DNA of 64,000 nucleotides from Alphaproteobacteria bacterium (GTDB taxonomy: Bacteria; Pseudomonadota; Alphaproteobacteria; SP197). Positions 16,935 through 43,853 of this stretch are shown piece by piece; position 1 is the first letter of the stretch; each line of letters starts with the position of its first letter. Under the pieces are notes generated by a model that saw only the letters and a list, made by a program, of their open reading frames with translations, was not told the DNA's origin and ran no database searches. The position numbers and the translations under genes are program-made. The DNA lies in NCBI GenBank assembly GCA_965200745.1, contig CBDAUZ010000001.1:370896-434895 (forward strand), given 5' to 3'.

Positions 16935-19859
16935 TCAGGCTGATTGGCGCTCCACGAAGCGACGGAACAAGCCGTCGGCCTTGCTGAGCTGTTCGAAGGT
17001 GCCCTCCTGAACGACCTTTCCAGCCTGAAGTACGTAGATACGGCTCGCCTGGCGGATCGTGGATATGCGATGGGCGATGACGATGCGCGTCGCACTGGAA
17101 TTCTCGATTCCGGCCATGGTCAGTTCCTGGCTCTTCGCGTCAAGCCAGCTGGTTGCTTCGTCGAGAAAGAGAATGCTCGGCCTGCGCACCAGTGCCGCTG
17201 CGATGCGGACGCGCTGCACCTGCCCGCCGGAAAACGTCGAGCCGCTGCCGCCCATCGGGGTGTGCATGCCCATCGGCATGGCGGCGATGTCATCGGCAAT
17301 TGCGGCCTGCCGCGCGGCTCGCCAAGCGTCGTCAAGGGTAAGGCTTTCGTCCACGCCGTTGATATTGTCCATCACCGTGCCTGCCAGCAGACTGTTCTCC
17401 TGCATCACGACGCCGATCTGGCGGCGCAGGAAATCGGCGTTGATGCGCGCAAGATCGTGGCCGTCATAGTAGACGGTTCCTGAGGACGGCGTCTCGAGAC
17501 CGAGCGCCAGGCGCATGAGCGTGCTCTTTCCCGAACCCGACTCGCCGACGACAGCGATGAACTCGCCCGGCTTGGTGCGGATCGTCACTTCGTCGAGGAC
17601 GAGAGGGCCGGATTCCGAATAGCGGAAGCTGACACGATCGAAGACGATTTCGCCGTTGATTTGCGGTGCCGCTCCGTCATGTGTTCCGCCCTCCGGCAGC
17701 GCCGCCAGGATTTCCCGCGATTGCTCGCCGGCCGGGATCAGTGCGGCGATGGCCTCGAACGAAAGGCTGAAGATGACGAGTGAGCCAACGAACATCATCG
17801 ATGCAGAGTAGATGACCATGAAATCCCCGACCGACAGCTGGGCCCGGTCCTGGGTGAGCGCCACGGCGATGAAGGCCGCGGTCCACAGCGCCGGAATCGA
17901 AATGGCGAGCGCGGTCAGGTGTTCGTTCAGCTTCGAGATGTCGATCTCGGCCAGTTTCTGCGTGCGATATTGTCTTGCCCATTTCGCATAGGCGGAGGCC
18001 TCGGCCCCACTCGCCCGCAGCTTGCCGATCCCGTTGATGAGCTGGAACAGGTGACCGGCAAGCGTGCGTGCAGCTGCAAAGCGGCGCCGGTGATACCCGA
18101 CCTGTACCATGCCTATGGCGACTGTCAGCCCGAGCGTCGCGATACCGAGGCACAGGCTCAGCCACCCCAGCGCGGTGTTGTAGACGAAGACCAGGGCGAA
18201 AGTCGGCATCAGGAACAGCACGGACAGGATGGCACCGGACGCCAGGGCGGACAATTGGTCGCGCATGACCAGGAATGTCATGGCCCGGGTCGCGAGGTCG
18301 CCGACAGTGAAACTCCGAAAGAACACCGGGCGCAGCCGCAGGAGGCGGTCCCAGACAGCCGCCACGATGCGCGTGGAGGCGCGTCCCTCGAGCCGCATCA
18401 TCGCGGTCCCGCGCAACATGTTGAGCAGACCCGCCAGGACGGCCGCCACCACCACCAGCCCTGTGAGGTGGAGCAGCCGGTCGGGTTCTCCCGAAGGGGC
18501 CAGGATATCGGCCAGGAGGCCGAGGGCCACTGCCGGAAACAGCAGGACGGCGCCGGCCGCGATTCCCGCCAGCGTCAACTGGCCGAGGTCTCCTGCCTGA
18601 TTGCGGCTGGCGAGGCGCAGCAGGTCGCGGGCGCCGGCCGGCCGGTCAGTCGGCAGGGGCCGGTAGACCATGACGGCATCGTCGATGAACTGGTCCGCGG
18701 TGCCTGCCGTCACCCGCCGGGCCTCGCCCGATACCGGATCGATGCTGCGATACCACCCGGACCGCCCGGGAAGAAGCGCGACGGGCTGTCCGTCATCCTT
18801 GCGCCAGGCGATCATCGCCCCGCTGTCTCCGTACCACCAGCGGTCTTCTTCCTTGAGACGCACCTGCCTGCCATTGAGACCGGATGCCAGCAGGACGGAG
18901 CGGAGGCTGTCCTTCGCCTCTTGTCTGTCCGGGACCCGGATGGCGATGTCCTCATAGGCAGCGACGATCCGCAATGCCGCAAGCGGCCCGGAATCGGCGT
19001 GGTCCGGAACAAATCCGTCGATGACAGAGTACAACCGGCTTCTGGACGCCGCCCTGTCCGTTCTCCGCCATGCCCCCCTGTTGCGCTGAAGGTTGGCTTC
19101 GTCGGCGAGAAGCAGCATGCGGTTGAAGGCTTCGGCGGCGAGTGCAAGCCTGTGAAACTCCGGCACATGCAGCGTCAGGAGATCGGCGGGGTCCATGTCC
19201 GAGGTCGCTTGGGCCTCGACCTCCACGCGTGCTGGAAGCATAGCCCAGATTCCGGGGCTGACAGGCATCAGGGCCGATGGCCCCGGACCCGATTCTTCCG
19301 TTCCGAGGTATGCGGCATCGGCGGCATCGCCACGAATCCACGCCACTCCTCGCTCGGAGGAGACCGTGCCCGATGCGGAGGTGGTCGATCCTGCCGTCAG
19401 CAGGACATCGGCACGCGGCCGGGGATCGATGTCTCGCACCACCGCTTCCGCAAATTCACGGATCCATGCGTCGACCTGTCCGGCCAGGGCATGCCCTGCC
19501 GCTCCTTCGGGCAAGCGCTCCAGCAGGTCCGTGATCCCGATCGGGCGAAGCGCAGAACCAGGCAAGCCCTTGGCCAGCAGCCCCAGGCCGCTGTTGCCGT
19601 CGCTCTGACCGAACAGGAGGCGCCCGCGCTGCGCCCGGATCATGTGCTTGTACATCGATGCGGTGCGGTCTTCCTGGAACTCGACCGCAAAGACATCGAC
19701 CGTGCCGCTCTCCACGATCCACACGGTGGTGGAGTCATCGAGGCGCAGCGGCTGGTTGCCGGCGCAGGGAATCGGTTCCCCGAAAAAGTCCGCAAAATCG
19801 ACGCCGTCGACGGGTTGTTCCGGCATGCGGGCGCGATCAGGAGGAATGGATGAGTTCAT
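16935..19859 (-). CDS. NHLM-type bacteriocin-system ABC transporter, ATP-binding/permease with N-terminal cNMP-binding-like domain
   Basis: 974 aa with N-terminal beta-roll/cNMP-like domain, six TM helices and an ABC NBD (Walker A 'GESGSGKST', signature 'FSGGQ'). Overlaps the upstream C39-ABC gene by 23 bp. Confidence 0.75.
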   Translation of the reverse strand: MNSSIPPDRARMPEQPVDGVDFADFFGEPIPCAGNQPLRLDDSTTVWIVESGTVDVFAVEFQEDRTASMYKHMIRAQRGRLLFGQSDGNSGLGLLAKGLPGSALRPIGITDLLERLPEGAAGHALAGQVDAWIREFAEAVVRDIDPRPRADVLLTAGSTTSASGTVSSERGVAWIRGDAADAAYLGTEESGPGPSALMPVSPGIWAMLPARVEVEAQATSDMDPADLLTLHVPEFHRLALAAEAFNRMLLLADEANLQRNRGAWRRTDRAASRSRLYSVIDGFVPDHADSGPLAALRIVAAYEDIAIRVPDRQEAKDSLRSVLLASGLNGRQVRLKEEDRWWYGDSGAMIAWRKDDGQPVALLPGRSGWYRSIDPVSGEARRVTAGTADQFIDDAVMVYRPLPTDRPAGARDLLRLASRNQAGDLGQLTLAGIAAGAVLLFPAVALGLLADILAPSGEPDRLLHLTGLVVVAAVLAGLLNMLRGTAMMRLEGRASTRIVAAVWDRLLRLRPVFFRSFTVGDLATRAMTFLVMRDQLSALASGAILSVLFLMPTFALVFVYNTALGWLSLCLGIATLGLTVAIGMVQVGYHRRRFAAARTLAGHLFQLINGIGKLRASGAEASAYAKWARQYRTQKLAEIDISKLNEHLTALAISIPALWTAAFIAVALTQDRAQLSVGDFMVIYSASMMFVGSLVIFSLSFEAIAALIPAGEQSREILAALPEGGTHDGAAPQINGEIVFDRVSFRYSESGPLVLDEVTIRTKPGEFIAVVGESGSGKSTLMRLALGLETPSSGTVYYDGHDLARINADFLRRQIGVVMQENSLLAGTVMDNINGVDESLTLDDAWRAARQAAIADDIAAMPMGMHTPMGGSGSTFSGGQVQRVRIAAALVRRPSILFLDEATSWLDAKSQELTMAGIENSSATRIVIAHRISTIRQASRIYVLQAGKVVQEGTFEQLSKADGLFRRFVERQSA

Positions 19860-22032
19860 GGTACAGGCCCGTCTCCTCCTTCATCAGCTCGTCATGTGTT
19901 CCGCGCTGAACCTCCTTTCCGTTGTTGAGCACCACGATCAGGTCGCTGTCGCGAATCGTGCTCAGCCTGTGCGCGACGATCAGACAGGTACAGCCCCGCC
20001 GGCGTATCGCGTCGTCGATCTCCAGTTCGCTGACGGTATCCAGGGCGCTGGTGGCCTCGTCGAGGATCAGGACCGACGGGCTGTTCACCAGGGCGCGGGC
20101 GATCTCCAGACGCTGACGCTGCCCGCCGCTGAAATTGCGTCCGCCTTCCTCCACCGCCGAGGCATAGCCCAGCGGGCGGGATGCGATTGCGTGGTGGATC
20201 GCCGCGTCACGCGCTGCCGCGACGATGGCCGAATCCGGCGTCGTCGGATTCCACAAGGTAAGGTTCTCGTTCACGGTACCGGCGAACAGGACGACGTTCT
20301 GGTCCACCATGGCCACCGAACTGGTCAGGATCTCGCGGGGGATCTCGTGTCGAAGATGGCCATCGAACCGGACCTCGCCCGACCAGGGCTGGTAGACACC
20401 GGCCACCAGGAGGGACAATGTCGACTTGCCGGAACCGCTCGGTCCCACGATCGCCACACGCTGCCCCGGTTCGACCGTCAGGTTGAAGTCCTCGAGCAGT
20501 GGCGGCCGGTTCTTCTGGAATCCGAATGTGATGTTGCGCAACTCCACACGCCCCACGAGTTGCAGGCGCTGGTTCAGGGTCACGAGCCTGTCGGTCTGCG
20601 CCGCTTCTTCCCCGCCGAACTCCCTGTCAGGCTCCGCATCCATGACGTCATCAAGCCTGCGCAGGTTCGCGGACATGGTCTCCAGCAGGTCGCTCAACTG
20701 GGCGAATCGTCCCACGGGACGCAGGAAGTTCATGGCCAGGATGTACGAGGCGGTCAGTGCGCCGAGCGTCATGTCTCCCGACATGACCCGCCAGCCGCCA
20801 AGTCCGATGACAAGAGCGGAACCGAGGACGAGCGCTGCCGGCGGCAAGGATTCAACGACATGGCCAAGTTCGACGAATTTCTGCCGGGCATTCAGTTCGC
20901 GTGCCTGATAGGCGGTGAACCGCGAGAAGAAATTGCCCCCCTGGGCGGTCGCCTGCAGCGAATCGATGATGCTGAGCCCGCCCATGCCGAGGCCTGACAT
21001 CATGCCCTGCTCGTGCAACAGGACATGATTGTGGTCCGTGCGCAGATAGGTGATGTATCGCATAGCCAACAGACACATCACGCCCAGAAGGCCGACTGCG
21101 ACGCCCGTCAGCGAATCGAGGACAAGTATCAGGATCAGGAATGCGAGGCTCATCACCAGCTCGATCGCGATGCCTGTCAACTGGATCGAGCCGATCAGGG
21201 CGATCTGATCGATCAATTGCATGCGCGAGGCCACGTCGCCTGCGTGGCGGCGGGTAAAGAAGTCGATGGGCAGCCGGACCAGCCGGCTCAGATAGCGGTC
21301 CGACTGCTGAACGGACAGGACAAGGGAGATCTTTCGCAGAGCGCGCATCTGGAGCCATGCCAGCATGTAGGATGCGACACCGGCGGCGATCGCAAGCCCC
21401 ATCACCAGGCCGGCCCAGCCCTCTTGGGCGTCGCCGACGACATGGTCGACGAAAACGGCCAGCAGGATGGGCAGGGCAAGCCCCGGTATTACCAGGAGGA
21501 GGCCGCAGAGGATGGCAAAGGCGAGGGCCGGACGCACGGACCTCAGCCATGGCCAGAACTGCTTGAGGATGCCGGGATGCGCTCCGCCGGGCTCGAAGGA
21601 CTCGCCCGGGGGCAATTCCAGCGTGACGCCCGTAAAGCATCGGTCGAACTCGTCCTCGCCGATGGTGCGGCGCCCCACCGCCGGGTCATTGATGAAAAAG
21701 CGGCCGCGTCCGATGCCCTCGAGAACGACAAAGTGCCGGAACTCCCAGAACAGGATGAGAGGCATCTTCATGGCCCTGAGTTGATTGATTTCCCGTCGCC
21801 ATGCCGAAGGCTGCAGACCGTATCTGCGCGCCGCCCTGAGGATATCGGCGGCATTCGCGCCGTCTCGGCCGACGCAGCAGGCCTCGCGAAGGTCCTGAAG
21901 CGGAACCCACTTTCCCAGATAGGCAAGGACGATGCCGAGGCTGGCCGCGCCGCATTCCGTGGCCTCGAGCTGCAGGATGACGGGTGTCTTGACGCGCCGG
22001 CCGGGAGTGGATTTGCGTCCGAACAGGTTCAT
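19837..22032 (-). CDS. NHLM-type bacteriocin ABC transporter with N-terminal C39 peptidase domain
   Basis: C39 motif 'LQLEATECGAASLGIVLAYLG', then TMD and NBD ('GPSGSGKST', 'FSGGQRQR'). This is the protein type that cleaves GG-leaders. Confidence 0.85.
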   Translation of the reverse strand: MNLFGRKSTPGRRVKTPVILQLEATECGAASLGIVLAYLGKWVPLQDLREACCVGRDGANAADILRAARRYGLQPSAWRREINQLRAMKMPLILFWEFRHFVVLEGIGRGRFFINDPAVGRRTIGEDEFDRCFTGVTLELPPGESFEPGGAHPGILKQFWPWLRSVRPALAFAILCGLLLVIPGLALPILLAVFVDHVVGDAQEGWAGLVMGLAIAAGVASYMLAWLQMRALRKISLVLSVQQSDRYLSRLVRLPIDFFTRRHAGDVASRMQLIDQIALIGSIQLTGIAIELVMSLAFLILILVLDSLTGVAVGLLGVMCLLAMRYITYLRTDHNHVLLHEQGMMSGLGMGGLSIIDSLQATAQGGNFFSRFTAYQARELNARQKFVELGHVVESLPPAALVLGSALVIGLGGWRVMSGDMTLGALTASYILAMNFLRPVGRFAQLSDLLETMSANLRRLDDVMDAEPDREFGGEEAAQTDRLVTLNQRLQLVGRVELRNITFGFQKNRPPLLEDFNLTVEPGQRVAIVGPSGSGKSTLSLLVAGVYQPWSGEVRFDGHLRHEIPREILTSSVAMVDQNVVLFAGTVNENLTLWNPTTPDSAIVAAARDAAIHHAIASRPLGYASAVEEGGRNFSGGQRQRLEIARALVNSPSVLILDEATSALDTVSELEIDDAIRRRGCTCLIVAHRLSTIRDSDLIVVLNNGKEVQRGTHDELMKEETGLYHELIHSS

Positions 22033-22925
22033 TGCCGTGGCGCCGACTCCGTGTCGGCCAGGAGGTCCAGCAGTGTTGCAGTTTCCACGATGATGCGGAC
22101 CCGGCAGGGCATGGCGTCCGACAGTGGCATGTCCGGTTCCTGGAGCAGGTTCAGGCGCACCATGGTCATGGCGCCCTGTCCGTGCGTGCCGCCGCCTTCC
22201 GAGAGAAGGCGAGTAAACCAGGCGGGCGGCGCAGCCGGCTCGGGAGCGACCATCACGACCTGGCCAGGCAGCGGCTGTTCGTCCGTCAAACCACCGACAA
22301 AGACCTGCGCCTTCATTCCCTTGCCGAGTTCTCGCGCCTCGGCAGGAGGAAGATAGGCGACGACCTCCACCCTGCCGCTTTCACCCATGCGCAGATCCGC
22401 CAGCGGCGTGCCGACGGCGACGGCCTGCCCCACATGAAGATGAAGTGCCGACACCACTCCCGCATAGGGCGCAAGGACCGCTCCCTCCCCGCGGCGTTGT
22501 GTCAGCCTCGCGAGTTCCTGCCGCGCCGCCGCCAGGCGTTCGTCGGTCCCGGCTTCGCGTTCGAGCACCGTCACATAGGCCAGCTGCGAGGCCAGCTGCG
22601 CCTCCAGTTCAGGCGACAGGACATGTGCGATCGGTTCACCCTTGGCAACGCCGTCCTTCACACCGACCGGAACATCCGTAACGACGCCGACTGCGCCGGC
22701 CTGCACGGTGTAGCGCTCGCCCGGATACAGGATCAGGCCTTCCGCGATCAGGGTCCGGTCCAGACTGCCGAATGCCGACCAGGAGAAAGCGGCGATGAGC
22801 GCAACAGCAAAACTGATCCGGATGATCCATTCATGGGGGGCCGTCACGCAGGCAAGGTCGTCCATGGGGTCCGGCCTGGATTGCCTCAGGAGGGCGCGTT
22901 CCCGAAAAATCCCTGGAGATAACAT
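22029..22925 (-). CDS. HlyD-family secretion adaptor (NHLM system)
   Basis: Single N-terminal TM, coiled-coil and a beta-barrel-like C-terminus. 4-bp overlap with the C39-ABC start. It is the first gene of the minus-strand operon. Confidence 0.7.
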   Translation of the reverse strand: MLSPGIFRERALLRQSRPDPMDDLACVTAPHEWIIRISFAVALIAAFSWSAFGSLDRTLIAEGLILYPGERYTVQAGAVGVVTDVPVGVKDGVAKGEPIAHVLSPELEAQLASQLAYVTVLEREAGTDERLAAARQELARLTQRRGEGAVLAPYAGVVSALHLHVGQAVAVGTPLADLRMGESGRVEVVAYLPPAEARELGKGMKAQVFVGGLTDEQPLPGQVVMVAPEPAAPPAWFTRLLSEGGGTHGQGAMTMVRLNLLQEPDMPLSDAMPCRVRIIVETATLLDLLADTESAPRQ

Positions 22926-23214
22926 TATCGGACCGACCGGCGACCTTGCTTCGAAGCTAGCCTAGGTGATGAAGCCCGGCGCGGCAACCAAGCGAAACAA
23001 TGCCGCGCTCGAGGGGCCACGTGAATGAAGGCTCTGCATGGCACGGCGGCCGCCGGCGCCGTCGGCAATACGGCTTTCGTTCCGGTATCGCTGGCTGACT
23101 CTTCCCCGAGGCCCGAGCGGCCTGACATCACGCAAGGCTTGGCGAAGGGTGATGCCTGTTGATATGATGATTCGCCCGCATGGCCGCAGGCTTCCCGCCA
23201 GCACATCGATATCA

Positions 23215-24148
23215 GAGTATGAAACATAAGTCGTTGATTTATTTGTTATTTGTTATCATGCGGTTGCTTCACGCGCCACGCGCCTGACAAGAAATCGACA
23301 GGCGGCCAATTGCGTCCAGGCCAAGGCATTGTCAGTGTGGCGCTCGTAATCCTTCGACAAGCGACGGCATCGGCCCATCCAGGCAAAGGTCCGCTCCACG
23401 ACCCACCGGCGGGGCAACACCGTGAAACCCTTGGTATCCTTCGGTTTTTCCACAATCTCGAGGATGTCTGGCAGGCCCTGTTCCCGGATCTCCTTGCGAA
23501 GTTTCGGTCCCGCATAGCCACCATCGGCATACAGTTTGGAGATCGTCGGCACCGTCGCCAACAGCTGTATGATAACCTCCAGGGCAGCGTCCCTGTCCTG
23601 GACGTCAGCCGGGTGAACCATCATGACAATCGGGCTGCCTAGCGCGTCCACGACAATGTGCCGCTTGCGGCCCTTGATCCTCTTGCCCGCGTCATAGCCA
23701 CAGGGACCGCCACTCTCCGTGGTCTTCACCGACTGGCTGTCGATCACGGCCATGCGCGGGCTCCGCAGAGCGTCCCGATAAGCACCGCACCCGATCCCGC
23801 AAGTGCTGCAGGACCTTGTCTGCGACGCCACCCGTAGAAATAGTTCTGGACCGTCGAAAATGGTGGATATTCACCGGGAAGCGCCCGCCACTGGCAGCCC
23901 GTGCTGAGAATGTACTGAATGGCGTCGAACACCGACCGCAGATCGGTCTTGCGCGGACGACCCATCTTGCCCTGCTTGGGCAGCTGCGGTCCGATGATAG
24001 CCCATTGTGCGTCCGTGAGATTGTTTTGCCGATGGTCGTCTGATCGCTTATAACGCCTGTGAGTGGTCTCGGTCCCCTCCAGATTGGGAATCGAGATCGA
24101 TCTAGTTTACCACATCTTGCGAGACCACTCGACATATGGATCAAACTC
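23215..24148 (-). mobile_element. IS5-family (IS427/IS1031-like) insertion sequence, copy 1
   Basis: 934 bp. Imperfect IRs GAGTTTGATCCATATGTCG / GAGTATGAAACATAAGTCG. Perfect 3-bp direct repeat TCA at 23212-23214 and 24149-24151. Carries orfB (23256..23831, 191 aa, DDE transposase). Its orfA lacks a start codon because of a 12-bp deletion relative to copy 2. Confidence 0.8.
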
Positions 24149-24175
24149 TCAGCGGTTCTGGCGACCTGACGGGTC

Positions 24176-25075
24176 ATGACACGGCCGCCACGCCGTTCAA
24201 CGAAACGGGGCCGGATCATGCGTGGAATGACAAGTACCCGGGATAGACCGCCGGGATCCGTTGACGGCGTAACACGGGTGACCTCGTCCCTCGAATGGAC
24301 TGCGCTGGCCGCAATTGTCCTGGCCATGATCGCCGTGTCCCTGTGGTCGGCTTTCGGAAGCCTGGACCGAAACGTGACGGTCGAGGGAGCCATCCTGCGG
24401 GGGGGAGAACGTCACGCCGTCCTGTCCGGGACCGCGGGCACGGTCGCCGAAGTGCTCGCAGGTGCGAACGACACGGTGGTGCAAGGCGCCCCCATCGCAC
24501 GGCTGTATCAGCCGGAGCTGGAGGCGCGGATCAGCGGGTTGCGGTCGCGTATCGACCGGTTGGAGCAGGCCGGCGATGCTGATGAAGGTTCCGTGACCGC
24601 GGCACGCCTCGAGCTTGCCGGGTTGACCGCGCGCCGGGTCAGCGGCGAGATCCTGGCGCCTTTTGCCGGTACCGTGACGGCAATGCATGTCGCCGTGGGA
24701 GAACCCCTGAAGGTCGGTACGCCGGTCTCGGAATTGCGACGCGCCGGAGGCGATTCCCTGGAAGTGGTGATCTTCGTTCCGGGCGACAAGGCGGAGAGGC
24801 TGCGCGAGGGCATGCGGGCGCAGGTCGAGATCGACAGCTCCGTCGCGGGGGCCGGCGTCGCCGCTGAAATCGTCGAGATTGCGACCGAGAGCGGCCCTCC
24901 ACCGGCCTGGTTCTCGCGGATTTCGGGAGTTGACGGAGCGGGCGCGACCTTGCCGCCGAGACACAGGATCCGGCTGGCCCTGCTTGATGAGCTGGACAAT
25001 CCGCCGGCCGACGCCGCGCCATGCCGGGTCCATATCATTCTCGAGACCGTCTCCTTGTTCGAACTGGTGACCTGA
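24176..25075 (+). CDS. HlyD-family secretion adaptor, orphan paralog of 22029..22925
   Basis: 299 aa, same architecture as the operon HlyD and clearly alignable to it ('LWSAFGSLDR', 'PPPAWF', 'APCRVHIILET'). Starts 25 bp after IS copy 1. A 7-9 bp stem-loop lies at 25066-25088. Confidence 0.7.
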   Translation: MTRPPRRSTKRGRIMRGMTSTRDRPPGSVDGVTRVTSSLEWTALAAIVLAMIAVSLWSAFGSLDRNVTVEGAILRGGERHAVLSGTAGTVAEVLAGANDTVVQGAPIARLYQPELEARISGLRSRIDRLEQAGDADEGSVTAARLELAGLTARRVSGEILAPFAGTVTAMHVAVGEPLKVGTPVSELRRAGGDSLEVVIFVPGDKAERLREGMRAQVEIDSSVAGAGVAAEIVEIATESGPPPAWFSRISGVDGAGATLPPRHRIRLALLDELDNPPADAAPCRVHIILETVSLFELVT

Positions 25076-26984
25076 AATCCTGGTCACCCAGTGCTTGTCG
25101 AGCCGACAATGGGTGATGGCGGCGACATGTTCGGCATTGTTGTCGAGCACATCCGCGATCCGCTGCTGCATCGCCAGTGTGGGAGAGCGCCAAGAATTCT
25201 GAATCTGGGCGAAGCGGGGCGCCAGGTTGTCGCTGGTGGCGTCGCCGGTGGCCAGAAGGGCCTCGTTCAGCGTCCAGGTTCCCGTATGGGCAAGCATGGC
25301 CTCCTTGGTGTATTTCGTCGTCGTGTACATCAGGCACAGGGCGTCATTGGCGCCCGGCGCCCGCGCCACCGTGTGGGCCGTGGCCGGCCCCGGTGCGCCC
25401 ACGCTTTTCCAGGTCTCAGAGCTTGATCCATATGTCGAGTGGTCTCGCAAGATGTGGTAAACCAGATCGATTTTTAACCACAATCTGGAGGATACCATGC
25501 CTTGGACCGAGACCACTCACAGGCGTTATAAGCGATCAGACGACCATCGGCAAAACAATCTCACGGACGCACAATGGGCTATCATCGGACCGCAGCTGCC
25601 CAAGCAGGGCAAGATGGGTCGTCCGCGCAAGACCGATCTGCGGTCGGTGTTCGACGCCATTCAGTACATTCTCAGCACGGGCTGCCAGTGGCGGGCGCTT
25701 CCCGGTGAATATCCACCATTTTCGACGGTCCAGAACTATTTCTACGGGTGGCGTCGCAGACAAGGTCCTGCAGCACTTGCGGGATCGGGTGCGGTGCTTA
25801 TCGGGACGCTCTGCGGAGCCCGCGCATGGCCGTGATCGACAGCCAGTCGGTGAAGACCACGGAGAGTGGCGGTCCCTGTGGCTATGACGCGGGCAAGAGG
25901 ATCAAGGGCCGCAAGCGGCACATTGTCGTGGACGCGCTAGGCAGCCCGATTGTCATGATGGTTCACCCGGCTGACGTCCAGGACAGGGACGCTGCCCTGG
26001 AGGTTATCATACAGCTGTTGGCGACGGTGCCGACGATCTCCAAACTGTATGCCGATGGTGGCTATGCGGGACCGAAACTTCGCAAGGAGATCCGGGAACA
26101 GGGCCTGCCAGACATCCTCGAGATTGTGGAAAAACCGAAGGATACCAAGGGTTTCACGGTGTTGCCCCGCCGGTGGGTCGTGGAGCGGACCTTTGCCTGG
26201 ATGGGCCGATGCCGTCGCTTGTCGAAGGATTACGAGCGCCACACTGACAATGCCTTGGCCTGGACGCAATTGGCCGCCTGTCGATTTCTTGTCAGGCGCG
26301 TGGCGCGTGAAGCAACCGCATGATAACAAATAACAAATAAATCAACGACTTATGTTTCATACTCTCAGGCTCATCACAGATGAAGGTGTAGATGCAGCTC
26401 CAGTAGCTTCCGGAATGGGTGTCCCACACGCAGGTGTTGGTGCGCAGTGTTCCGAAAGAGGGATGAAACGATATCGCCGCGTCCATGTCGTCGTAGTAGC
26501 CCTTGGCGGCGTGGACTGGCTTCGAGCCGCACACCTTCTCCGCGGGCTCGCCCATGAACTTCAGGCTCCCGGCGATATCGTGGCACTCCATCGCCGCCTT
26601 GGCGGCCAGTATCCCGGCCAGGGCGGAGATGCCGAGGGCGGAATGCGGATCGGTGTGGCCGGCCGCGGCATGATGGGCGCCGTCCCTGAGCTTGCGCCAG
26701 GGCACGCGGTCCTGGTTGTTGCCGGGCACGGCGTCATACTCGGGATAGGATCCGATGGTCGGCCCGCTGCCGTTCGACCAGCGCGCGCAGAAGGCGGAAG
26801 GCATGCCGCCGGAGCCTTCCTCGACCTCGATTCTCTCCCGCTTCAGGCAGTCCACATACCATGCCGCCGACCGGTATTCGCGCCACGCCGGTTCGTGAAA
26901 GACCCAGATCACGCGATGCCAGTCCGAGAGTGTCCGGCGGTTGGCTTCGACCCAGTCGATGGCCGTCTGCTTTTCAGGTGTCAT
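25076..26984 (-). pseudogene. M20-family amidohydrolase (AbgB-like), disrupted by IS copy 2 and 3'-truncated
   Basis: The 5' part (26984→26368) aligns to the AbgB N-terminal half ('GSYPEYDAVPG', 'KFMGEPAEK…KGYYDDMDAAISFHP'). Reading resumes in frame on the far side of the IS (25415→~25076, 'ETWKSVGAPG…AITHCRLDKHW') once one TSD copy is removed. Only about 320 of the ~480 expected residues remain, because the hlyD paralog lies on the opposite strand. Confidence 0.6.
25419..26364 (+). mobile_element. IS5-family (IS427/IS1031-like) insertion sequence, copy 2, intact
   Basis: 946 bp. orfA at 25497..25835 (112 aa) and orfB at 25748..26323 (191 aa) overlap out of frame, which suggests a frameshift-fusion transposase. 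3-bp TSD TCA at 25416-18 and 26365-67. Outside the deletion it is nucleotide-identical to copy 1. Confidence 0.85.
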
Positions 26985-27365: not shown

Positions 27366-28448
27366 CTAGGAAGGGCCGCCGGCTTCGGATGGTGGAGGGG
27401 AAGTACGCGCTGCTGTTTGGTGGTCCGGTCGGCAAGGTGCTGCCACATCGGCTGTCGCGTGCAAGTCGAGATAGGCCTTTGCGCGCCGATCCGCGCCGTC
27501 GAGCGTGATCTTGAGATGGCTGACGCAGCGGTGGGCGTTGAGGAGTACGTGCATGTCGGAGAAGAGTTTGCTGCCGGGAAACCTTCGCAGCCCCTCGGCC
27601 TTGGCCGGCAGGCAGAGATCCTGCGCCACCAGCCAGTCGAGCATGTCCTCCATCCGGTCCTTCTCCGGCACCCATTCGAGTCCGAGCGGAGAACCGAGCC
27701 CCTCCGGTCCGACATCCAGACCGAGCATACGGCGGGACGACAGCGGTTCCAAGGCGGACGCGATCCGTTCGACCTCCGGCAGGGAGCCCGGCCAGCCGAT
27801 GCGCTCCAGAAAGCGCATCGCCGCCGCCATTGTCGCGAACGTGCAGACGAGGCGCAGACCGCGGCGCAGGCGCGCCGGAAACGTCCCGGCGTGGATCACA
27901 CGCGCCTCTTCGCCGGGAAGGAGGGAAAAGATCCGCTCGACCGTCCGGCGCTCGCCGGCGTCCTCCTCCATTCCTGCCGAGCGGGCGAGCGCCGACAGCA
28001 TGTCGCCTGGATTGCGGAACGCCTTACCGGCGGCGTCGCCGGCCGCCGTCAGGAAGAGTCCGGGTCTCCGGTCCGGTCCGGATTCAATCAGGTCGTATTC
28101 GAGAATCGGCAGGCCGACGATACGGGAAAGACAGGAACCGGGCTCTTCGAGTTGTGCGAGAAGCCAGGCCAGCGCCGCGGCCTGCGGGTCGCTTCCCTTT
28201 GCTTCGCTCCCGCGTCGGCGAAAGTGTGCCGATACGCTCGAACCGGGAACGATGGCGACGGCAAGGTCAGCCGCCGGTTCCGCCTCGCCCAGGCGGATTT
28301 CAAGCCCGAACGGGAAAATCGCCGTCGCCAGCGGCAATGTGGAGGCGCACCGGAGAACACGCTCCAAACCGGAGCCCGCAACCAGCGACTGCGGGATCTC
28401 CGGCCGGAGCGTGTCTAGAAACCAGCCGAGCGATGACCTGTTCGTCAA
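27366..28448 (-). CDS. Hypothetical protein (360 aa), family unknown; immediately downstream of the NHLP precursor
   Basis: TTG start. GC3 is high and the composition is Ala/Leu/Glu/Gly-rich and protein-like, whereas the competing plus-strand ORFs are Ser/Arg/Pro-rich. No recognisable catalytic motif. Confidence 0.5.
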   Translation of the reverse strand: MTNRSSLGWFLDTLRPEIPQSLVAGSGLERVLRCASTLPLATAIFPFGLEIRLGEAEPAADLAVAIVPGSSVSAHFRRRGSEAKGSDPQAAALAWLLAQLEEPGSCLSRIVGLPILEYDLIESGPDRRPGLFLTAAGDAAGKAFRNPGDMLSALARSAGMEEDAGERRTVERIFSLLPGEEARVIHAGTFPARLRRGLRLVCTFATMAAAMRFLERIGWPGSLPEVERIASALEPLSSRRMLGLDVGPEGLGSPLGLEWVPEKDRMEDMLDWLVAQDLCLPAKAEGLRRFPGSKLFSDMHVLLNAHRCVSHLKITLDGADRRAKAYLDLHATADVAAPCRPDHQTAARTSPPPSEAGGPS

Positions 28449-28504
28449 CGCAGGGGAAGCCTGGGTCTGGTCGGTGGATTACCGGGCCGGATGATCGGAC
28501 ATGC

Positions 28505-28789
28505 CTACCAAATATTTATTCGTGATGTAAAACTACCTCCCCCCCCCGAGAAGAAGCCTCCGCTGACTTGCGCGAGGTCGCTTTCGGAGATCATGGGGGA
28601 AGGCGGGAGCACAATGTGTACGTGCTCTGCCGATTGTTCATGCACCGAAAGCGACAAGCTGACTGGAATGGATACATCGAACTCGCTTTCGATCGTGCCG
28701 CGCGGATCGTCGAGCAGTAACTGCCGGAACGCGTCGTCCGCGCCGGCCTTTTCGATCAATTGATCGCGCATCTCTGCCGCTGTCTTCAT
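28505..28789 (-). CDS. NHLP (nitrile-hydratase-leader peptide) family RiPP precursor
   Basis: Start MKTAAEMRDQL at 28789, with AAGGAG 9 nt upstream. The 78-aa leader '…AEHVHIVLPPSPMISESDLAQVSGG' is the NHLP signature and ends in a double-Gly. The 16-aa core FFSGGGGSFTSRINIW is partly encoded by a G9 run. Confidence 0.8.
   Translation of the reverse strand: MKTAAEMRDQLIEKAGADDAFRQLLLDDPRGTIESEFDVSIPVSLSLSVHEQSAEHVHIVLPPSPMISESDLAQVSGGFFSGGGGSFTSRINIW
28539..28547. repeat. Homopolymeric tract C9 (G9 on coding strand) inside the precursor core
   Basis: Read directly. Encodes S-G-G-G of the core (TCG GGG GGG GGA). Confidence 0.9.
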
Positions 28790-28980
28790 GATACTCGTCT
28801 CCTTGTCATTATGCCAACTGATACAGGCTTGACGCATTGCCAAAACACCTGCCGCACAGGCTTGCGCTGTCTAGATACGTAGGCATGTGCTTTCTTTTTT
28901 CAACCCTCGCAACCCGCCAGCCGCATTCGCGACGCGCTGTGGCAATGTTGCACCCTTGCGCTTGCATGTGCGATGGCGAT

Positions 28981-28988
28981 CCCCCCCC
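28981..28988. repeat. Homopolymeric tract C8 abutting the IS4-like left inverted repeat, in the precursor upstream region
   Basis: Read directly. It sits between the precursor 5' region and the IS4 IR, which begins at 28990. Confidence 0.9.
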
Positions 28989-28989
28989 G

Positions 28990-31318
28990 CCTATCATTGA
29001 ATCACACTTGATTCCGACATGAGTTTCTGCATGAAGCAGCATCATGCAGATTGGTTTGCGTCAGGTTTCAGCGGACACGATGTCGTGGCTGAGCAATGCA
29101 TGCAAGAGTGGTGATTGCTCGCGCGCATCACTGGCGCGCGAGATCTCCAGTCTCGAGGGCTGGCTTGACTATCGGGGTCGCCCGCGTTTGTCATCGGGGC
29201 ATCATGTTCTTCCGGTTCTGGCGCGCGAGCTTGGTGTTTCCTTGCCGCCCCGCGCGTTACCGGTTGGTGATGCCCATGTTCGTGCGGCGGTTGGTTATCC
29301 GGACCTGTCTCTTTCCTGCACGCTTGCGGCGCTTGGTGTTGTCTCGGTTGATCTGGTTTCGGAGGCGGATCGCCGTTGTTGGGATTCGATGATGGAGAGC
29401 CATCATCGTGGCGGTTGGCGGCGCGCACCGGGTGGTTTGCTGCGCTACTGGATCCGTTCATCGCGCTACGGGATTGTGGGCGGCTTGTGTTTCACCGCGG
29501 CGGGCCTGCAGCTCAAGCCGCGCGATGACTATATTGGCTGGTCCGCCGCCGCCCGCCTTGCCCACATACAAGAGGTTGTGTGCAACCATCGATTTCTGAT
29601 TTTGCCGTCGGTGCGGGTGCACCATCTGGCTTCGACGGCACTGCGCGCGGCAACCGTGCGCGTGGCCACGGACTGGCAGGAGCGCTATGGCGTGCGCCCC
29701 CTTCTGCTTTACACATTCGTTGCGCCGGACCATTCGGGTCTGAGCTACCGTGCGGCGGGCTGGGAATGCTGTCCGCAATGGACATCGGGTCGCCGTTCCG
29801 GGGTGCCGCGTGCGGTCTGGGTGAAGCCACTGGAGGCGGGCTGGAAGGCGGCACTCACCCACGAGGAGGCGCCTGTTCTCGGCCGTTCCAAACCGTTGTA
29901 TTGTGACGGTTCGTGGGCGCAACGCGAGTATGCCCGCAGTTCTTATCCCGACGGCCGCGTCAGGCGCCGGATTGCGGCGATGGGCAAGGCATGGCAGAAG
30001 AAACTGGGCGCGTCGATCCCGGTTATCTTTCCACGCCAGGCTGATCAGACGGCGGCCTATCGATTGCTGTCGAACGAGAATGTGACCATGAAGCATATCC
30101 TGGAGCCGCATTACGAGGCGACTGTTGACCGCTGCCGACAGGAGCGTCTGGTGCTGGCGATCCAGGACACGACGACCGTGAACTACGACACCTTGTCTGC
30201 GACGGGCGGCCTTGACGATCTCGGTGGCGGCGGCAAGGGGACAGCGGGTGTTCTCGCGCATTGCGGCATGGCGATCAACGGCGTTGGCCGTCCGCTGGGC
30301 CTGTTCACCATGGATGCGTCGTTCCGGCGGGCCGCCGGCAAGGACAGTGTCCGCTGGGTGGCGGGTCTTGACCGTGCGCGGGAACTTGCTGCGGCCTGTG
30401 CGCACACCCGGGTTGTCAGCGTCTGTGACCGCGAGGGCGATTTCTGGAGCCTGTTGTCGCACGCCAGAGACACCGGTGGCGAACTTCTGGTGCGTGCCAG
30501 CCGTTCGGCGCAGCGCCGGGTCGACACGCCTGCCGGTGCGGTTGACCTGTGGAGTCATGTCGAAGGGCTGGAACCGCTCGGGACACGGACCATCGATGTG
30601 CCGGGCTGCGGCGGACCCAACCGGCGCAAGGCGCGCACGGTCACGTTGACCCTGCGGTCTGCCCATGTTGATCTGATTGCGCCCAACGATGTCGGCGGTG
30701 ACCCCCTGTCCATGCTGGCGGTTTCGGCACGCGAGGATAACCCGAAAAAGAACACCACCCCCCTGAACTGGTTGCTGCTTTCCACCGTCGGTGAAGCCAA
30801 TCTCGACGGCGCGAAGGAACTCCTGCGCTTCTACGAACTGCGCTGGAGCATCGAACGCTTCTTCCATGCGCTCAAGACCGGAACACGCATCGAAGACCGG
30901 CGGCTCGACGAGGCCGACGACCTCAAGAAATGTCTGGCATTCGACGCCATCACGGCCTTCCGGGTGTGGGACCTCACCTGGCTGGCGCGGACCAGGGCCA
31001 ACGACCCGGCGCACGAATATGTGCCACCACACGACATCGAGATGTTGTGCGCCCTCACGCGCTTCTATCAACTCAAATCAGTGCGCGGACCGCCCGGACC
31101 GGACATGGATATCGAAAAGTTTGTCATCCTGACCGCCGGGCTGGCAGGCTTCCATCCATCAAAACGACAACCCTTGCCCGGCACACAGAAACTCTGGGAA
31201 GGAAGTCAGATCCTGACCCAATCCGTGACCGGATACCAGGCAATAAAAGAAATACTGGACCAATAACCCGCAAAGGAAACCATCCAGGAAACGGAATCAA
31301 GTGTGATGCATTGATAGG
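28990..31318 (+). mobile_element. IS4-family (Tn5/IS50-like) insertion sequence
   Basis: 27-bp imperfect terminal IRs (CCTATCATTGAATCACACTTGATTCCG / revcomp CCTATCAATGCATCACACTTGATTCCG, 25/27 match). No flanking direct repeat found. Confidence 0.75.
29044..31266 (+). CDS. IS4-family DDE transposase with about 290-aa N-terminal extension
   Basis: The C-terminal two-thirds aligns to Tn5 Tnp ('LAIQDTTTVNY', 'VCDREGDF', 'YELRWSIERFFHALKTG' YREK signature). The N-terminal ~290 aa are extra and possibly DUF4338-like. Confidence 0.8.
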   Translation: MQIGLRQVSADTMSWLSNACKSGDCSRASLAREISSLEGWLDYRGRPRLSSGHHVLPVLARELGVSLPPRALPVGDAHVRAAVGYPDLSLSCTLAALGVVSVDLVSEADRRCWDSMMESHHRGGWRRAPGGLLRYWIRSSRYGIVGGLCFTAAGLQLKPRDDYIGWSAAARLAHIQEVVCNHRFLILPSVRVHHLASTALRAATVRVATDWQERYGVRPLLLYTFVAPDHSGLSYRAAGWECCPQWTSGRRSGVPRAVWVKPLEAGWKAALTHEEAPVLGRSKPLYCDGSWAQREYARSSYPDGRVRRRIAAMGKAWQKKLGASIPVIFPRQADQTAAYRLLSNENVTMKHILEPHYEATVDRCRQERLVLAIQDTTTVNYDTLSATGGLDDLGGGGKGTAGVLAHCGMAINGVGRPLGLFTMDASFRRAAGKDSVRWVAGLDRARELAAACAHTRVVSVCDREGDFWSLLSHARDTGGELLVRASRSAQRRVDTPAGAVDLWSHVEGLEPLGTRTIDVPGCGGPNRRKARTVTLTLRSAHVDLIAPNDVGGDPLSMLAVSAREDNPKKNTTPLNWLLLSTVGEANLDGAKELLRFYELRWSIERFFHALKTGTRIEDRRLDEADDLKKCLAFDAITAFRVWDLTWLARTRANDPAHEYVPPHDIEMLCALTRFYQLKSVRGPPGPDMDIEKFVILTAGLAGFHPSKRQPLPGTQKLWEGSQILTQSVTGYQAIKEILDQ

Positions 31319-35096: not shown

Positions 35097-35280
35097 ATAG
35101 TGTCGCCACAGGAACAGGTCGAGGGAAATCGGTGAGAACCTCTGGTTTCAGGCCGATGCTGCCCCCGCAACTGTAACGGTGAGACCGGAGATGGATAATC
35201 CACTGGAAAGCGCCGGGTCTGGCGTTGACCGGGAAGGAATCTCCAGTGTCGTTGACCCGCAGCCAGGACATCTCGCTGTT
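35097..35280 (+). promoter_or_regulatory. Cobalamin (AdoCbl) riboswitch upstream of cobU
   Basis: 'AGGGAAATCGGTGAGAACC…GCTGCCCCCGCAACTGTAA…CCACTGG…GGGAAGG…AGCCAGGACATCTCGC' matches the conserved cobalamin-riboswitch core and B12 box. Confidence 0.75.
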
Positions 35281-35317
35281 CCCGTTCTGGATCCTCTGCG
35301 CCTCGGAGGGAGGTCGG

Positions 35318-35890
35318 ATGTCCGTTGCTGCATTTCGCTGGCGCGACACATCGTTACAAGAACCCGGCAACCCGCACGTCTGTTTCGTGTTCGGCGCGAC
35401 GCGATCCGGCAAGAGCCGGTTTGCCGAACAACTCGTCACGCAAACCGGTCTTGAACGGGTCTACATCGCGACAGCAGTCGCTGGCGATGCCGAGATGTCC
35501 GAGCGGATCGCCCGCCATCGGTCACGACGCGGTGACGACTGGATCACAATTGAAGAACCCGTTGAGATCGAACGGGTCCTTCGTGCTGCAATGGCGGAGT
35601 GCGATCGGGTTGCCCTTGTTGATTGCCTGACGATCTGGCTGGCCAATCTCATGGCGACCGATCACGGTATTGATCACTACACGACATCTCTCCTGCGTCA
35701 TCTCGCCGAGATACGCACGCCCATTGTTCTGGTCTCCAACGAGGTCGGGAGCGGAATCGTTCCCGATAACGCCCTCGCCCGAACATTCCGTGATGACCTG
35801 GGAACCCTGAATCGACGCGTGGCCGAAATTGCCGGTCGTGTCGTCCTCGTTTCTGCCGGAATTCCACTTACCCTGAAGGATAGTTCATGA
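35318..35890 (+). CDS. cobU: Adenosylcobinamide kinase / adenosylcobinamide-phosphate guanylyltransferase
   Basis: P-loop 'VFGATRSGKS'. About 190 aa. Start follows GGAGGGAGG. Confidence 0.8.
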   Translation: MSVAAFRWRDTSLQEPGNPHVCFVFGATRSGKSRFAEQLVTQTGLERVYIATAVAGDAEMSERIARHRSRRGDDWITIEEPVEIERVLRAAMAECDRVALVDCLTIWLANLMATDHGIDHYTTSLLRHLAEIRTPIVLVSNEVGSGIVPDNALARTFRDDLGTLNRRVAEIAGRVVLVSAGIPLTLKDSS

Positions 35891-40658: not shown

Positions 40659-41275
40659 CGGAGACTGCAAACGATCATGCGACCAACGATCGTCATCGCG
40701 AGAAGATGCAGAAACGAAAGGCCGCACGCGACAGGATAATGGAAACGAAGACCGAGGAACGTGGTCTGATCATCGTTCACACCGGCAAGGGAAAGGGAAA
40801 ATCGTCGGCTGCGTGGGGCATGGCGCTTCGTTGCCTGGGTCACGGTTACCGGATCGGTATTGTCCAGTTCATCAAGGGCCGAACCGAAACGGGTGAATAC
40901 AAGTTTCTGACAAGATTCCCGGAAAGCGTGACATACAGGGTCATGGGTGAAGGCTTCACGTGGGAGACCCAGGATCGCGCCCGTGACATCGAGATGGCGA
41001 ATGCGGCGTGGATGACGTCAAGGGAACTGATGCAGGACCCTGATATCCGGATGGTCATACTCGACGAACTGAACATTGCCCTGCGCTACGAATACGTCGA
41101 TCTTGCAGACGTGCTCGAGACCCTGTCGAACAAGAGACCGGACCTGCACGTCGTCATAACCGGCCGGAATGCGCATGCTGATCTTGTTGCGTGTGCGGAC
41201 CTCGTCACAGAAATGACGCTGGTGAAACATCCGTTTCGTGATGGTGTGAAGAGTCAACCAGGCGTCGAGTTCTGA
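40655..41275 (+). CDS. cobO: Cob(I)yrinic acid a,c-diamide adenosyltransferase
   Basis: 'LIIVHTGKGKGKSSAAWG' P-loop of the CobA/CobO family. Confidence 0.85.
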   Translation: MTETANDHATNDRHREKMQKRKAARDRIMETKTEERGLIIVHTGKGKGKSSAAWGMALRCLGHGYRIGIVQFIKGRTETGEYKFLTRFPESVTYRVMGEGFTWETQDRARDIEMANAAWMTSRELMQDPDIRMVILDELNIALRYEYVDLADVLETLSNKRPDLHVVITGRNAHADLVACADLVTEMTLVKHPFRDGVKSQPGVEF

Positions 41276-41344
41276 ACCGGTCGGTTCGATCATCTGACGC
41301 AACATCGCCTGTGCAATCAGTGTCCTCGCTTGCAATCTGACCCG

Positions 41345-43812: not shown

Positions 43813-43853
43813 CGGTGCGGTCCGATCGCGGAAAGGAACCCGCCGAGAAGGGT

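Follow-up and report, generated by a model that had tools for sequence, protein, structure and literature searches.

Which enzyme, if any, matures a double-glycine RiPP precursor whose core lacks Cys and whose surroundings seem to lack a maturase? This question is raised by a 64,000-nucleotide stretch of an alphaproteobacterial contig (the window), in which an NHLP-type precursor of 94 aa is encoded on the minus strand (28505..28789). Its ATG lies at 28787-28789, with AAGGAG ca. 8 nt upstream, and its stop codon at 28505-28507. In an NCBIfam scan, TIGR03793 (leader_NHLP) matched the precursor above its cut-off (61.6 vs. 50.9 bits; E = 4.7e-17), residues 4-78 aligning to profile positions 2-77 of 77. 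This result bears out the claim, made in an earlier note on this DNA, of a genuine NHLP/double-glycine precursor. The leader (residues 1-78; 28556-28789, minus strand) ends in a double-glycine motif (...DLAQVSGG) and is followed by a short core of 16 residues, FFSGGGGSFTSRINIW (28508-28555, minus strand). The core contains four Ser, one Thr, one Arg, and no Cys; its C-terminus is ...INIW, the sole Trp being Trp94 (core position 16). As previously noted, a core without Cys does not allow thiazol(in)e or lanthionine chemistry. The GC content of the core coding sequence is 43%, compared with 59% for the window, and a G9 run lies inside it. Independent gene calls on a 2.68-Mb contig and on three short-read contigs of other runs gave the identical 94-aa protein (P0177), so this G9 run is not an assembly artefact. 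The precursor was the only ORF with a double-glycine leader found in the window.

Pfam and NCBIfam scans of the large ORFs of the window revealed no YcaO, LanM, or radical-SAM protein, in agreement with the earlier inspection. With no such maturase in the scanned ORFs and no Cys in the core, the locus does not have the features of a proteusin-, TOMM-, or prochlorosin-type pathway. The gene located downstream of the precursor, with a gap of 56 nt between the precursor stop codon and its start, encodes a 360-aa protein (27366..28448, minus strand). This ORF had no Pfam or NCBIfam match at E ≤ 0.01, its relatives are publicly annotated as "hypothetical protein", and a PDB sequence profile search gave only chance matches (e.g., PARP14 macrodomain, E = 0.016). 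The missing Pfam and NCBIfam matches and these annotations favor the idea that the precursor yields an unmodified or "simpler" NHLP product without a maturase, the 360-aa protein being either unrelated or a non-catalytic barrel for leader binding or immunity. However, the predicted structure of the 360-aa protein was a high-confidence beta-barrel with the alpha-beta-beta-alpha (ABBA) PT-barrel fold, its strong structural neighbors were prenyltransferases only, and the closest of them act on indoles. All 41 residues invariant in the enzyme family are present in the window enzyme, and in the model the invariant charged and aromatic residues sit on barrel strands, as is typical of diphosphate binding. 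In addition, the domain is fused elsewhere in the family to LanM, 2OG oxygenase, FAD-binding, and sulfotransferase domains, which marks it as a tailoring enzyme. With the homology to an enzymatically characterized family described below, we consider an unmodified product hardly credible. Judging from the modeled fold and this homology, the adjacent protein belongs to the ABBA-fold prenyltransferases, more precisely to the MppC-like RiPP family; it is the predicted maturase of the precursor and is predicted to act on the core Trp. The label "orphan" with "no recognisable maturase" given to the precursor is not supported, since the neighboring gene encodes an MppC-type homologue from a family that is paired with NHLP precursors.

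The homology was established with a 375-aa ORF of Moorena producens, which adjoins a LanM gene and a gene for an MppE homologue (87% identical) and is presumed, from synteny and species, to be the MppC orthologue. The window enzyme matched this ORF in hhalign (99.85%, E = 1e-30) and in BLASTP (E = 4e-18), although its identity to MppC-type enzymes is only 27%. MppC and its substrate MppE belong to the mpp cluster of M. producens (Wakeel, McShan & Agarwal, JACS 2025; PMC12715784). Like the window enzyme, MppC is a soluble ABBA-type prenyltransferase encoded beside a precursor with a long structured leader (MppE, ending in ...AGG) and a short core with Trp, on which MppC acts. All invariant barrel residues are common to the Moorena orthologue and the window enzyme, and in sequence networks MppC shows no similarity to cyanobactin prenyltransferases. 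On the other hand, the leader of MppE is of the Nif11 type, whereas that of the window precursor is of the NHLP type. The MppE core (ACWRWSG) is first cyclized by the LanM MppM, and MppC prefers the macrocycle; in contrast, the window has no LanM and a linear core without Cys. The modified Trp is internal in MppE and is predicted to be C-terminal in the window core. Furthermore, the window enzyme has a gap opposite a segment of ca. 25 residues (about 306-335 of the Moorena ORF) that lies in the region of the published leader-contacting residues. Residues 336 and 340 of the Moorena ORF are not W/F, and the published W336/F340 numbering maps inexactly onto this orthologue. Because the segment is missing in the window enzyme, its engagement of the leader probably differs from that of MppC or may be absent.

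The earlier note had allowed for the 360-aa ORF having no conserved homologues. An exhaustive profile search recovered 3879 cluster representatives at E ≤ 1e-3, indicating that the ORF is conserved; a family of only eight obtained with a word-indexed search was an artefact of limited sensitivity. The closest homologue, P0001, shares 73% identity with the window enzyme, and a search for its contig location found none. Scanning metagenome contigs with the single window protein yielded no relatives. The analysis, which included a genome scan with a five-sequence alignment, found roughly 40 related loci. As to the syntenic comparison that the earlier note had called for, what recurs at homologous loci is this enzyme together with cores that contain Trp, rather than Cys-rich cores and a standard maturase. 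Two of the related loci (L005 and L004) have a separate class II terpene-cyclase-like gene. Two long homologues, P0113 and P0094, were considered as prenyltransferase-cyclase fusions of the NctPC kind, but they showed no similarity to the terpene-cyclase-like protein of L005; with two stretches matching the family profile in each, they are probably tandem prenyltransferase domains.

Among the distinct NHLP cores adjoining enzyme homologues (n = 84), 73 contain Trp, 29 are Trp-terminal, and nine contain Cys; Trp makes up 8.3% of the residues across linked cores. Two sister precursors from the same population as the window have the cores NFLRNVIW and FISGRMIW, ending in ...VIW and ...MIW. The three cores of this population have only F-x-S-G/..R..IW in common, the IW end being present in all three. 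The remaining 11 linked cores lack Trp (e.g., VDVYPV and FAPTNDSY), so Trp is not the universal acceptor in the family. These cores, together with the four Ser, the Thr, and the Arg of the window core, raise the question of whether an active prenyltransferase modifies Ser/Thr O-, Arg N-, Phe, or a free N- or C-terminus, as in the cyanobactin F-family. Two articles (PMC10853753; PMC13290415) describe ABBA peptide prenyltransferases for Ser/Thr, Tyr, His, Arg, and termini. Nevertheless, nearly all of the Trp-less cores carry Tyr, which is also an aromatic acceptor, and the characterized homologue and the closest structural neighbors of the window enzyme use indoles. With the Trp content of the linked cores, the frequency of Trp-terminal ones, and the uniform IW end in the population, an acceptor of this other kind appears improbable, and Trp94 is the favored candidate.

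Among known systems, the closest match in substrate logic is PalQ/PalX of Paenibacillus alvei (Miyata, Ito & Fujinami 2023; PMC10853753). As in the window, the precursor (PalX) is of the NHLP type, has a conserved Trp at the end of its core (DNVRRFFW), and is encoded beside a single prenyltransferase; the PalQ product is a linear peptide prenylated on the C-terminal Trp. However, PalQ has an all-alpha isoprene-synthase (ComQ-like) fold. The window enzyme had no polyprenyl-synthase match and its predicted fold is a beta-barrel, so it is not of the PalQ/ComQ type, and PalQ is an analogue rather than a homologue. The Pal cluster also differs in having a histidine kinase, in lacking an NHLP ABC exporter, and in belonging to Firmicutes, compared with Proteobacteria for the window. 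According to PMC13290415, NctPC (Hubrich et al., Chem 2024) is a RiPP prenyltransferase with an ABBA barrel; its similarity to cyanobactin enzymes is described as low, and Trp as the acceptor of the geranylgeranyl group that it transfers. By the descriptions in PMC13290415 and PMC12715784, NctPC is a prenyltransferase-cyclase fusion, whereas the window has no cyclase; the logic thus described is echoed by the separate cyclase-like gene of L005 and L004. The cyanobactin F-family enzymes (PagF, PatF, LimF, and KgpF) are leader-independent and act after proteolysis and macrocyclization. They had no sequence-level match to the window enzyme and were structurally further from it than indole prenyltransferases; neither PatF/TruF-type models nor a PatA/PatG protease context was found for the window enzyme and its locus. 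MpnD, CymD, 6-DMATS, and TleC, which are bacterial indole/Trp ABBA enzymes, use free Trp or small molecules as substrates instead of leader-bearing peptides; their identity to the window enzyme is ca. 10%, and the window enzyme had no match to Pfam Trp_DMAT.

A complete NHLP export set (C39-ABC, second ABC, and HlyD) is encoded on the same strand 5-12 kb downstream of the precursor. An NHLP export ABC transporter with an N-terminal C39 peptidase domain (19837..22032, minus strand) matched TIGR03796 over the full length (877 bits vs. a cut-off of 853; Peptidase_C39, E = 7e-30), and is predicted from sequence to cut after GG and export the product. The second NHLP export ABC transporter subunit (16935..19859, minus strand) covered TIGR03797 profile positions 5-685 of 686 with 688 bits, just below the cut-off of 709. 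For the HlyD-type NHLP secretion adaptor (22029..22925, minus strand), the top NCBIfam match was TIGR03794 (NHLM_micro_HlyD, E = 2e-26, below cut-off). A second HlyD-type adaptor gene (24176..25075, plus strand; TIGR03794/HlyD_3) is inverted between two IS5 copies; its product is 41% identical to the first (BLASTP, E = 1e-67), and its TIGR03794 score was also below cut-off. The earlier note had named the 360-aa ORF and an M20 amidohydrolase as the only co-oriented downstream genes. The former was correct, but the M20 gene is only a fragment and the export genes (16935-22925) had been missed.

Three IS copies sit in the locus, making its decay possible. IS5-family copy A (23214..24150, minus strand) and copy B (25418..26365, plus strand; transposase DDE_Tnp_1, transpos_IS5_3) form an inverted pair of identical copies that separates the exporter from the enzyme; copy B is 100% identical to 23214-24075 in inverted orientation over 862 nt. 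No clear target-site duplication was seen at the outer ends of the pair, and a simple composite-transposon origin of the block of the two IS5 copies and the second HlyD gene is unsupported. Copy B truncates the M20 amidohydrolase gene, leaving a 5' fragment (26366..26984, minus strand) that matches TIGR01891 profile positions 2-155 of 366; the IS boundary at 26365 corresponds to residue 308 of the ORF. No M20 gene adjoins the enzyme in any of the related loci with a gene table. Truncated here and missing there, M20 was rejected as a tailoring enzyme, and the fragment is probably outside the pathway. An IS4-family element (28990..31318, plus strand) encoding a 740-aa transposase with a DruA-like N-terminal domain (transpos_IS4_3, E = 1.6e-80; DruA, E = 2.2e-19) is bounded by 27-nt inverted repeats (28990-29016 and 31292-31318) and ends ca. 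200 nt upstream of the precursor start codon.

This arrangement, with an inverted HlyD paralogue and a truncated M20 gene, is what would be expected of a decaying relic, with intact ORFs for precursor and prenyltransferase that IS4 and IS5 insertions and rearrangement have cut off from the promoter and/or the exporter, so that no product is made now. Related copies are visibly decayed: in L001/L012 the precursor is frameshifted and the enzyme has an internal deletion, in L050 the enzyme is cut at residue 182, and L054 has a precursor without the enzyme. The window enzyme differs from the 97%-identical L050 copy at four synonymous and six non-synonymous sites, too few for dN/dS. In contrast, the five pathway ORFs (precursor, enzyme, both ABC subunits, and HlyD) are full length with family-level scores, none of the invariant residues of the window enzyme has been lost, the same precursor-enzyme pair occurs unchanged in three other sequencing runs, and the IS5 copies, being 100% identical, seem to have been inserted recently. 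We regard a relic as unlikely but a case to be taken seriously. Of the two alternatives posed by the earlier note, a new and simpler class or inactivation, the second was right insofar as the locus is eroding, with its three IS copies and truncated M20 gene. "New and simpler NHLP product class" was overstated because members of this family had been shown to make prenylated RiPPs in work of 2024-2025.

The reading that we prefer, and think fairly probable, is a small prenylated-RiPP gene cluster, still expressed despite its IS load, in which the precursor, the ABBA prenyltransferase, and the NHLP exporter give a C-terminally lipidated 16-mer. The NHLP precursor would be bound by the adjacent ABBA-fold prenyltransferase, probably through the leader, and an isoprenyl group (C5 to C20) would be transferred to the indole of Trp94, the donor being a prenyl diphosphate supplied by primary metabolism. 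The NHLP-type ABC transporter would then cut past the GG motif with its C39 peptidase domain and, together with the second ABC subunit and the HlyD adaptor(s), export the 16-residue peptide. The most likely product is this GG-cleaved, exported 16-mer with the prenyl group on the C-terminal Trp, a small secreted lipopeptide of a type recently described and little explored.

There is demand for prenylation as a tool to lipidate therapeutic peptides at a late stage. To our knowledge, studies so far cover a single leader-dependent enzyme of the ABBA type (MppC) and a single fusion of prenyltransferase and cyclase (NctPC), both cyanobacterial. The window locus and the ca. 40 related loci indicate a much larger family, without a Pfam or NCBIfam model, one branch of which is combined with NHLP leaders and with linear cores that lack Cys and end in Trp. 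If so, it would offer a two-gene, genetically encodable C-terminal peptide lipidation that is independent of the PalQ fold. Fold-level annotation of "hypothetical" neighbor genes can likewise explain "orphan" NHLP precursors. That the window enzyme represents a distinct MppC-like branch, acting as a stand-alone maturase on linear NHLP precursors, recognizing an (I/V/M)-I-W-type C-terminus instead of a lanthionine ring, and engaging the leader in a mode other than that of MppC, we put at slightly below an even chance. If true, the branch would mark out a widespread class of linear lipopeptides prenylated on a C-terminal Trp; with precursor arrays of up to about a dozen in uncultured MAGs of many phyla, these could be pheromone-like (cf. 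ComX and PalX) or membrane-active.

The gene at 28505–28789 (minus strand) encodes a 94-aa peptide, with its ATG at 28787–28789 and AAGGAG ahead of it. TIGR03793 (leader_NHLP) matched this peptide at 61.6 bits (cut-off, 50.9; E = 4.7e-17), with residues 4–78 covering profile positions 2–77 of 77, and the split after GG gives the leader MKTAAEMRDQLIEKAGADDAFRQLLLDDPRGTIESEFDVSIPVSLSLSVHEQSAEHVHIVLPPSPMISESDLAQVSGG and the core FFSGGGGSFTSRINIW. These results confirm an NHLP-type precursor with a core containing no Cys, as an earlier note had proposed from the sequence. No other double-glycine leader peptide turned up when the six-frame ORFs of the whole window were scanned with a regex. With 43% GC vs. 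59% window-wide, the core coding sequence is AT-rich, and it includes a G9 run. The identical protein is encoded on a 2.68-Mb contig and three short-read contigs (other runs), indicating that the reading frame is real; the downstream gene is the same after each of these four copies. The G9 homopolymer of the core coding stretch (28508–28555, minus strand) encodes GGGG. Slippage by +1 or −1 would give FFSGGGR or FFSGGEVVLHHE, each followed by a stop, and the C-terminal Trp would be lost; hence, the site may be phase-variable or hypermutable.

The 360-aa ORF located 56 nt downstream of the precursor gene (27366–28448, minus strand) matched no Pfam or NCBIfam model. A word-indexed search found only 8 relatives, while exhaustively searching 1.84 billion cluster representatives with a HMMER profile recovered 3879 (E ≤ 1e-3), 913 of them with E ≤ 1e-30. 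The protein therefore belongs to a large family that neither Pfam nor NCBIfam models cover and whose members are labeled "hypothetical protein" in public records; the ORF thus does not lack homologs, which the earlier note would have taken as a sign that it is non-coding. Some members are fused with LanM, 2OG-Fe(II) oxygenase, FAD-binding, or sulfotransferase domains, all of which are tailoring-enzyme contexts. AlphaFold2 (9-sequence alignment; pLDDT 88, pTM 0.85) modeled a 10-stranded barrel from five alpha-alpha-beta-beta repeats. All of the top 50 Foldseek matches in the PDB were aromatic prenyltransferases, including CloQ, NphB/Orf2, EpzP, AmbP1, DMATS1, AnaPT, 5-DMATS, FgaPT2, CdpNPT, LimF, and PagF. 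Based on the alignment and the model, the family-invariant polar residues (E50, E117/D119, R199, D245, E258, K283, H311/K313, and K324/Y326) sit on barrel strands with i/i+2 spacing, as expected of a diphosphate-binding prenyltransferase barrel.

MppC of Moorena producens is an ABBA-type, strictly leader-dependent prenyltransferase; in the lanthipeptide precursor MppE, which has a Nif11 leader, it geranylates indole C5 of Trp82 (PMC12715784). In sequence networks, MppC-like proteins stay apart from the cyanobactin prenyltransferases; they co-localize with LanM (76), Nif11 precursors (87), and NHLP precursors (9), this bare count of 9 sequences being the prior mention of the NHLP association (SI, PMC12715784). 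Using the MppE sequence (SI, PMC12715784) as a query, we found an 87% identical homolog in M. producens together with its locus, which consists of LanM, the precursor, and a 375-aa ORF without a Pfam match. This ORF, presumed from synteny to be the MppC ortholog, matched the window-family profile with 99.85% probability (E = 1e-30), showed 27% identity with the window protein across the whole barrel (BLASTP, E = 4e-18), and kept every family-invariant residue. The published MppC residue numbers W336 and F340 did not map exactly onto the Moorena ORF; the segment around these numbers (ca. 306–335) lies opposite a gap in the window protein. The window enzyme is homologous to MppC but lacks the segment around the positions published as leader contacts, and the window system has neither the LanM partner nor the cyclized substrate of the MppC system.

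Almost certainly, the 360-aa protein belongs to the MppC-like ABBA prenyltransferases. The earlier note had seen no maturase at this locus; that reading, or one in which the 360-aa protein is non-catalytic, is contradicted by the barrel fold, the homology, and the conserved residues and is extremely improbable. The absence of YcaO, LanM, and radical-SAM genes stated there did hold in our scans of the other large ORFs of the window. A cyanobactin F-family enzyme was rejected as the identity of the enzyme, as were the proteusin, TOMM, and prochlorosin pathways as that of the system.

Homologs of the enzyme gene directly follow NHLP precursor genes in metagenome loci L002/L003, L005, L010, and L006–L009, and the same order was found in most of 38 genome loci, all from MAGs, obtained by scanning 185,579 species genomes. 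The hosts include Rhodobacter sp. (62% identity), Alphaproteobacteria (57%), Spirochaetia, Gammaproteobacteria, Binatia, Dehalococcoidia, Acidobacteria/Vicinamibacterales, Gemmatimonadetes, and Ca. Poriferihabitaceae; several record titles point to sponge-associated lineages such as the last. Many loci contain precursor arrays and several enzyme paralogs. In L005, L010, L020, and L027 (Gammaproteobacteria MAG OZ251545.1 and metagenome contigs), at least six NHLP precursors are interleaved with 4–5 enzyme paralogs, accompanied by FAD_binding_4 proteins and a terpene-cyclase-like gene. Repeated proteins of 118–194 aa lie between the array modules; each combines a single TM segment with a coiled-coil built of 'AEARSDRAAWQAE'-type repeats, and they may serve in immunity. 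The extra gene in L005 and L004 is class II terpene-cyclase-like (8pak "squalene-hopene cyclase", E = 5e-7; SQHop_cyclase_C, E = 1e-4). L002 and L013, which are the nearest relatives that are complete, carry a 600-aa methyltransferase-domain protein in place of the terpene-cyclase-like gene; their cores are ACQGLPWYCS and CKSFTPWYCS. A distant member, P0008 (391 aa), lies within a richer RiPP cluster in L006–L009 (e.g., L006 4772–14680) encoding an arginase-JmjC/cupin fusion, an 859-aa Trp-halogenase/FAD_binding_4 fusion, TfuA, YcaO, and a 125-aa NHLP-like precursor with an Ala-rich core ending in TRAGRSW. The identical cores RGSGNDEAITFWDDF and ARPRGQEWDPRTW, along with near-identical ones, occur in L015, L016, and L018 (Gammaproteobacteria MAGs) and L022 (Ca. 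Binatia MAG), and the motifs ..ITFWDD[FW], ..WYH..W, and VDVNWDTVNIS recur widely. Identical cores in MAGs assigned to different phyla and these recurrent motifs suggest that the clusters spread horizontally.

Using our own leader HMM on six-frame ORFs, we collected 84 cores, counted as distinct sequences from phylogenetically non-independent loci. Trp was present in 73 (15.8 expected at a Trp frequency of 1.3%) and C-terminal in 29 (1.1 expected), and it accounted for 8.3% of all residues; Cys occurred in only nine cores. In contig L050 from the same population, two tandem sister precursors with the cores NFLRNVIW and FISGRMIW are followed by an enzyme copy (9291–9848) that is 97% identical to the window enzyme and truncated at residue 182. 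The ending (I/V/M)-I-W is common to the three cores of this lineage, and FISGRMIW looks like the window core minus the expansion. The acceptor is probably Trp94. The 11 linked cores without Trp could point to modification of another residue; however, these almost always have Tyr (Trp or Tyr in 83/84), making this improbable.

The earlier note had listed the 360-aa and M20 genes as the only co-oriented downstream genes, which overlooked three genes of an NHLP-specific export set further downstream in the same orientation: a C39-peptidase ABC transporter (19837–22032; TIGR03796, 877 bits, cut-off 853; Peptidase_C39, E = 7e-30), a second ABC subunit (16935–19859; TIGR03797, 688 bits, full-length), and an HlyD adaptor (22029–22925). 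The M20 match itself was correct, but the gene is a fragment (profile positions 2–155 of 366) cut by IS5 copy B at ORF residue 308; no M20 gene adjoins the enzyme gene in related loci. The two inverted IS5-family copies (A, 23214–24075; B, 25504–26365; 862 nt, 100% identical) sit between the enzyme gene and the exporter and flank a second HlyD paralog (24176–25075, plus strand; 41% identical to the first). Their inner 82 nt (24071–24152 vs. 25415–25496) are just 87% identical, unlike the 862 nt, and no clear target-site duplication was found at the outer ends of the pair (23214–26365); inversion, deletion, or gene conversion are candidate histories of this block. An IS4-family element (28990–31318; inverted repeats, 28990–29016 and 31292–31318) ends ca. 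200 nt upstream of the precursor ATG. Its 740-aa transposase (29044–31266, plus strand) has an unusual architecture, with an N-terminal Druantia DruA match (PF14236, E = 2.2e-19) followed by Tn5-type DNA-binding and DDE regions. The remaining window content is housekeeping, including FtsK and a cobalamin biosynthesis block (35225–44007), with toxin-antitoxin/defense-type genes at the edges (1601–2824, minus strand; 52107–52985, plus strand; 58133–59281 and 61738–63177, plus strand) encoding a HipA kinase, an AbiEi antitoxin-like regulator, and two IrrE/M78 peptidase-domain proteins.

These insertions and the truncated M20 gene could mark a decaying relic, and sister loci are decaying as well: L001/L012 (9677–10939; uncultured Rhodobacter sp.) has a frameshifted precursor and an enzyme with a 36-residue internal deletion, L050 is truncated, and L054 (10001–10270) has a precursor (core, IDRWGSRDYGP) but lacks an enzyme in its vicinity. 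Part of the decay in related copies could derive from low-coverage long-read assemblies (2x–10x). Against a relic, each of the five pathway ORFs in the window is intact, and the IS copies, at 100% identity, look recent. A relic is rather unlikely, and we lean slightly toward a locus that is still active.

PalX of Paenibacillus alvei is an NHLP precursor whose conserved C-terminal Trp is prenylated by the isoprene-synthase-fold PalQ (PMC10853753). The window system shares with PalQ/PalX the logic of an NHLP leader, a C-terminal Trp, and a single prenyltransferase, while its enzyme is not homologous to PalQ. Going by the description of the prenyltransferase-cyclase NctPC, the window enzyme appears to be of its type, and the terpene-cyclase-like gene of L005 and L004 parallels its prenyltransferase-cyclase logic. 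We propose that the 360-aa enzyme would bind the NHLP precursor and move a prenyl group, C10 in the case of MppC and C20 in that of NctPC, onto the only Trp, at the C-terminus. Cleavage after GG by the C39 domain of the TIGR03796 transporter would follow, and then export of the lipidated 16-mer. Among the papers covered by our literature search, none characterizes an NHLP-linked, LanM-free member of this family. In 2024, Hubrich et al. reportedly described a prenyltransferase-cyclase with a proteusin-type substrate from cyanobacteria; if so, the pairing of an NHLP precursor with an ABBA enzyme already has one precedent.
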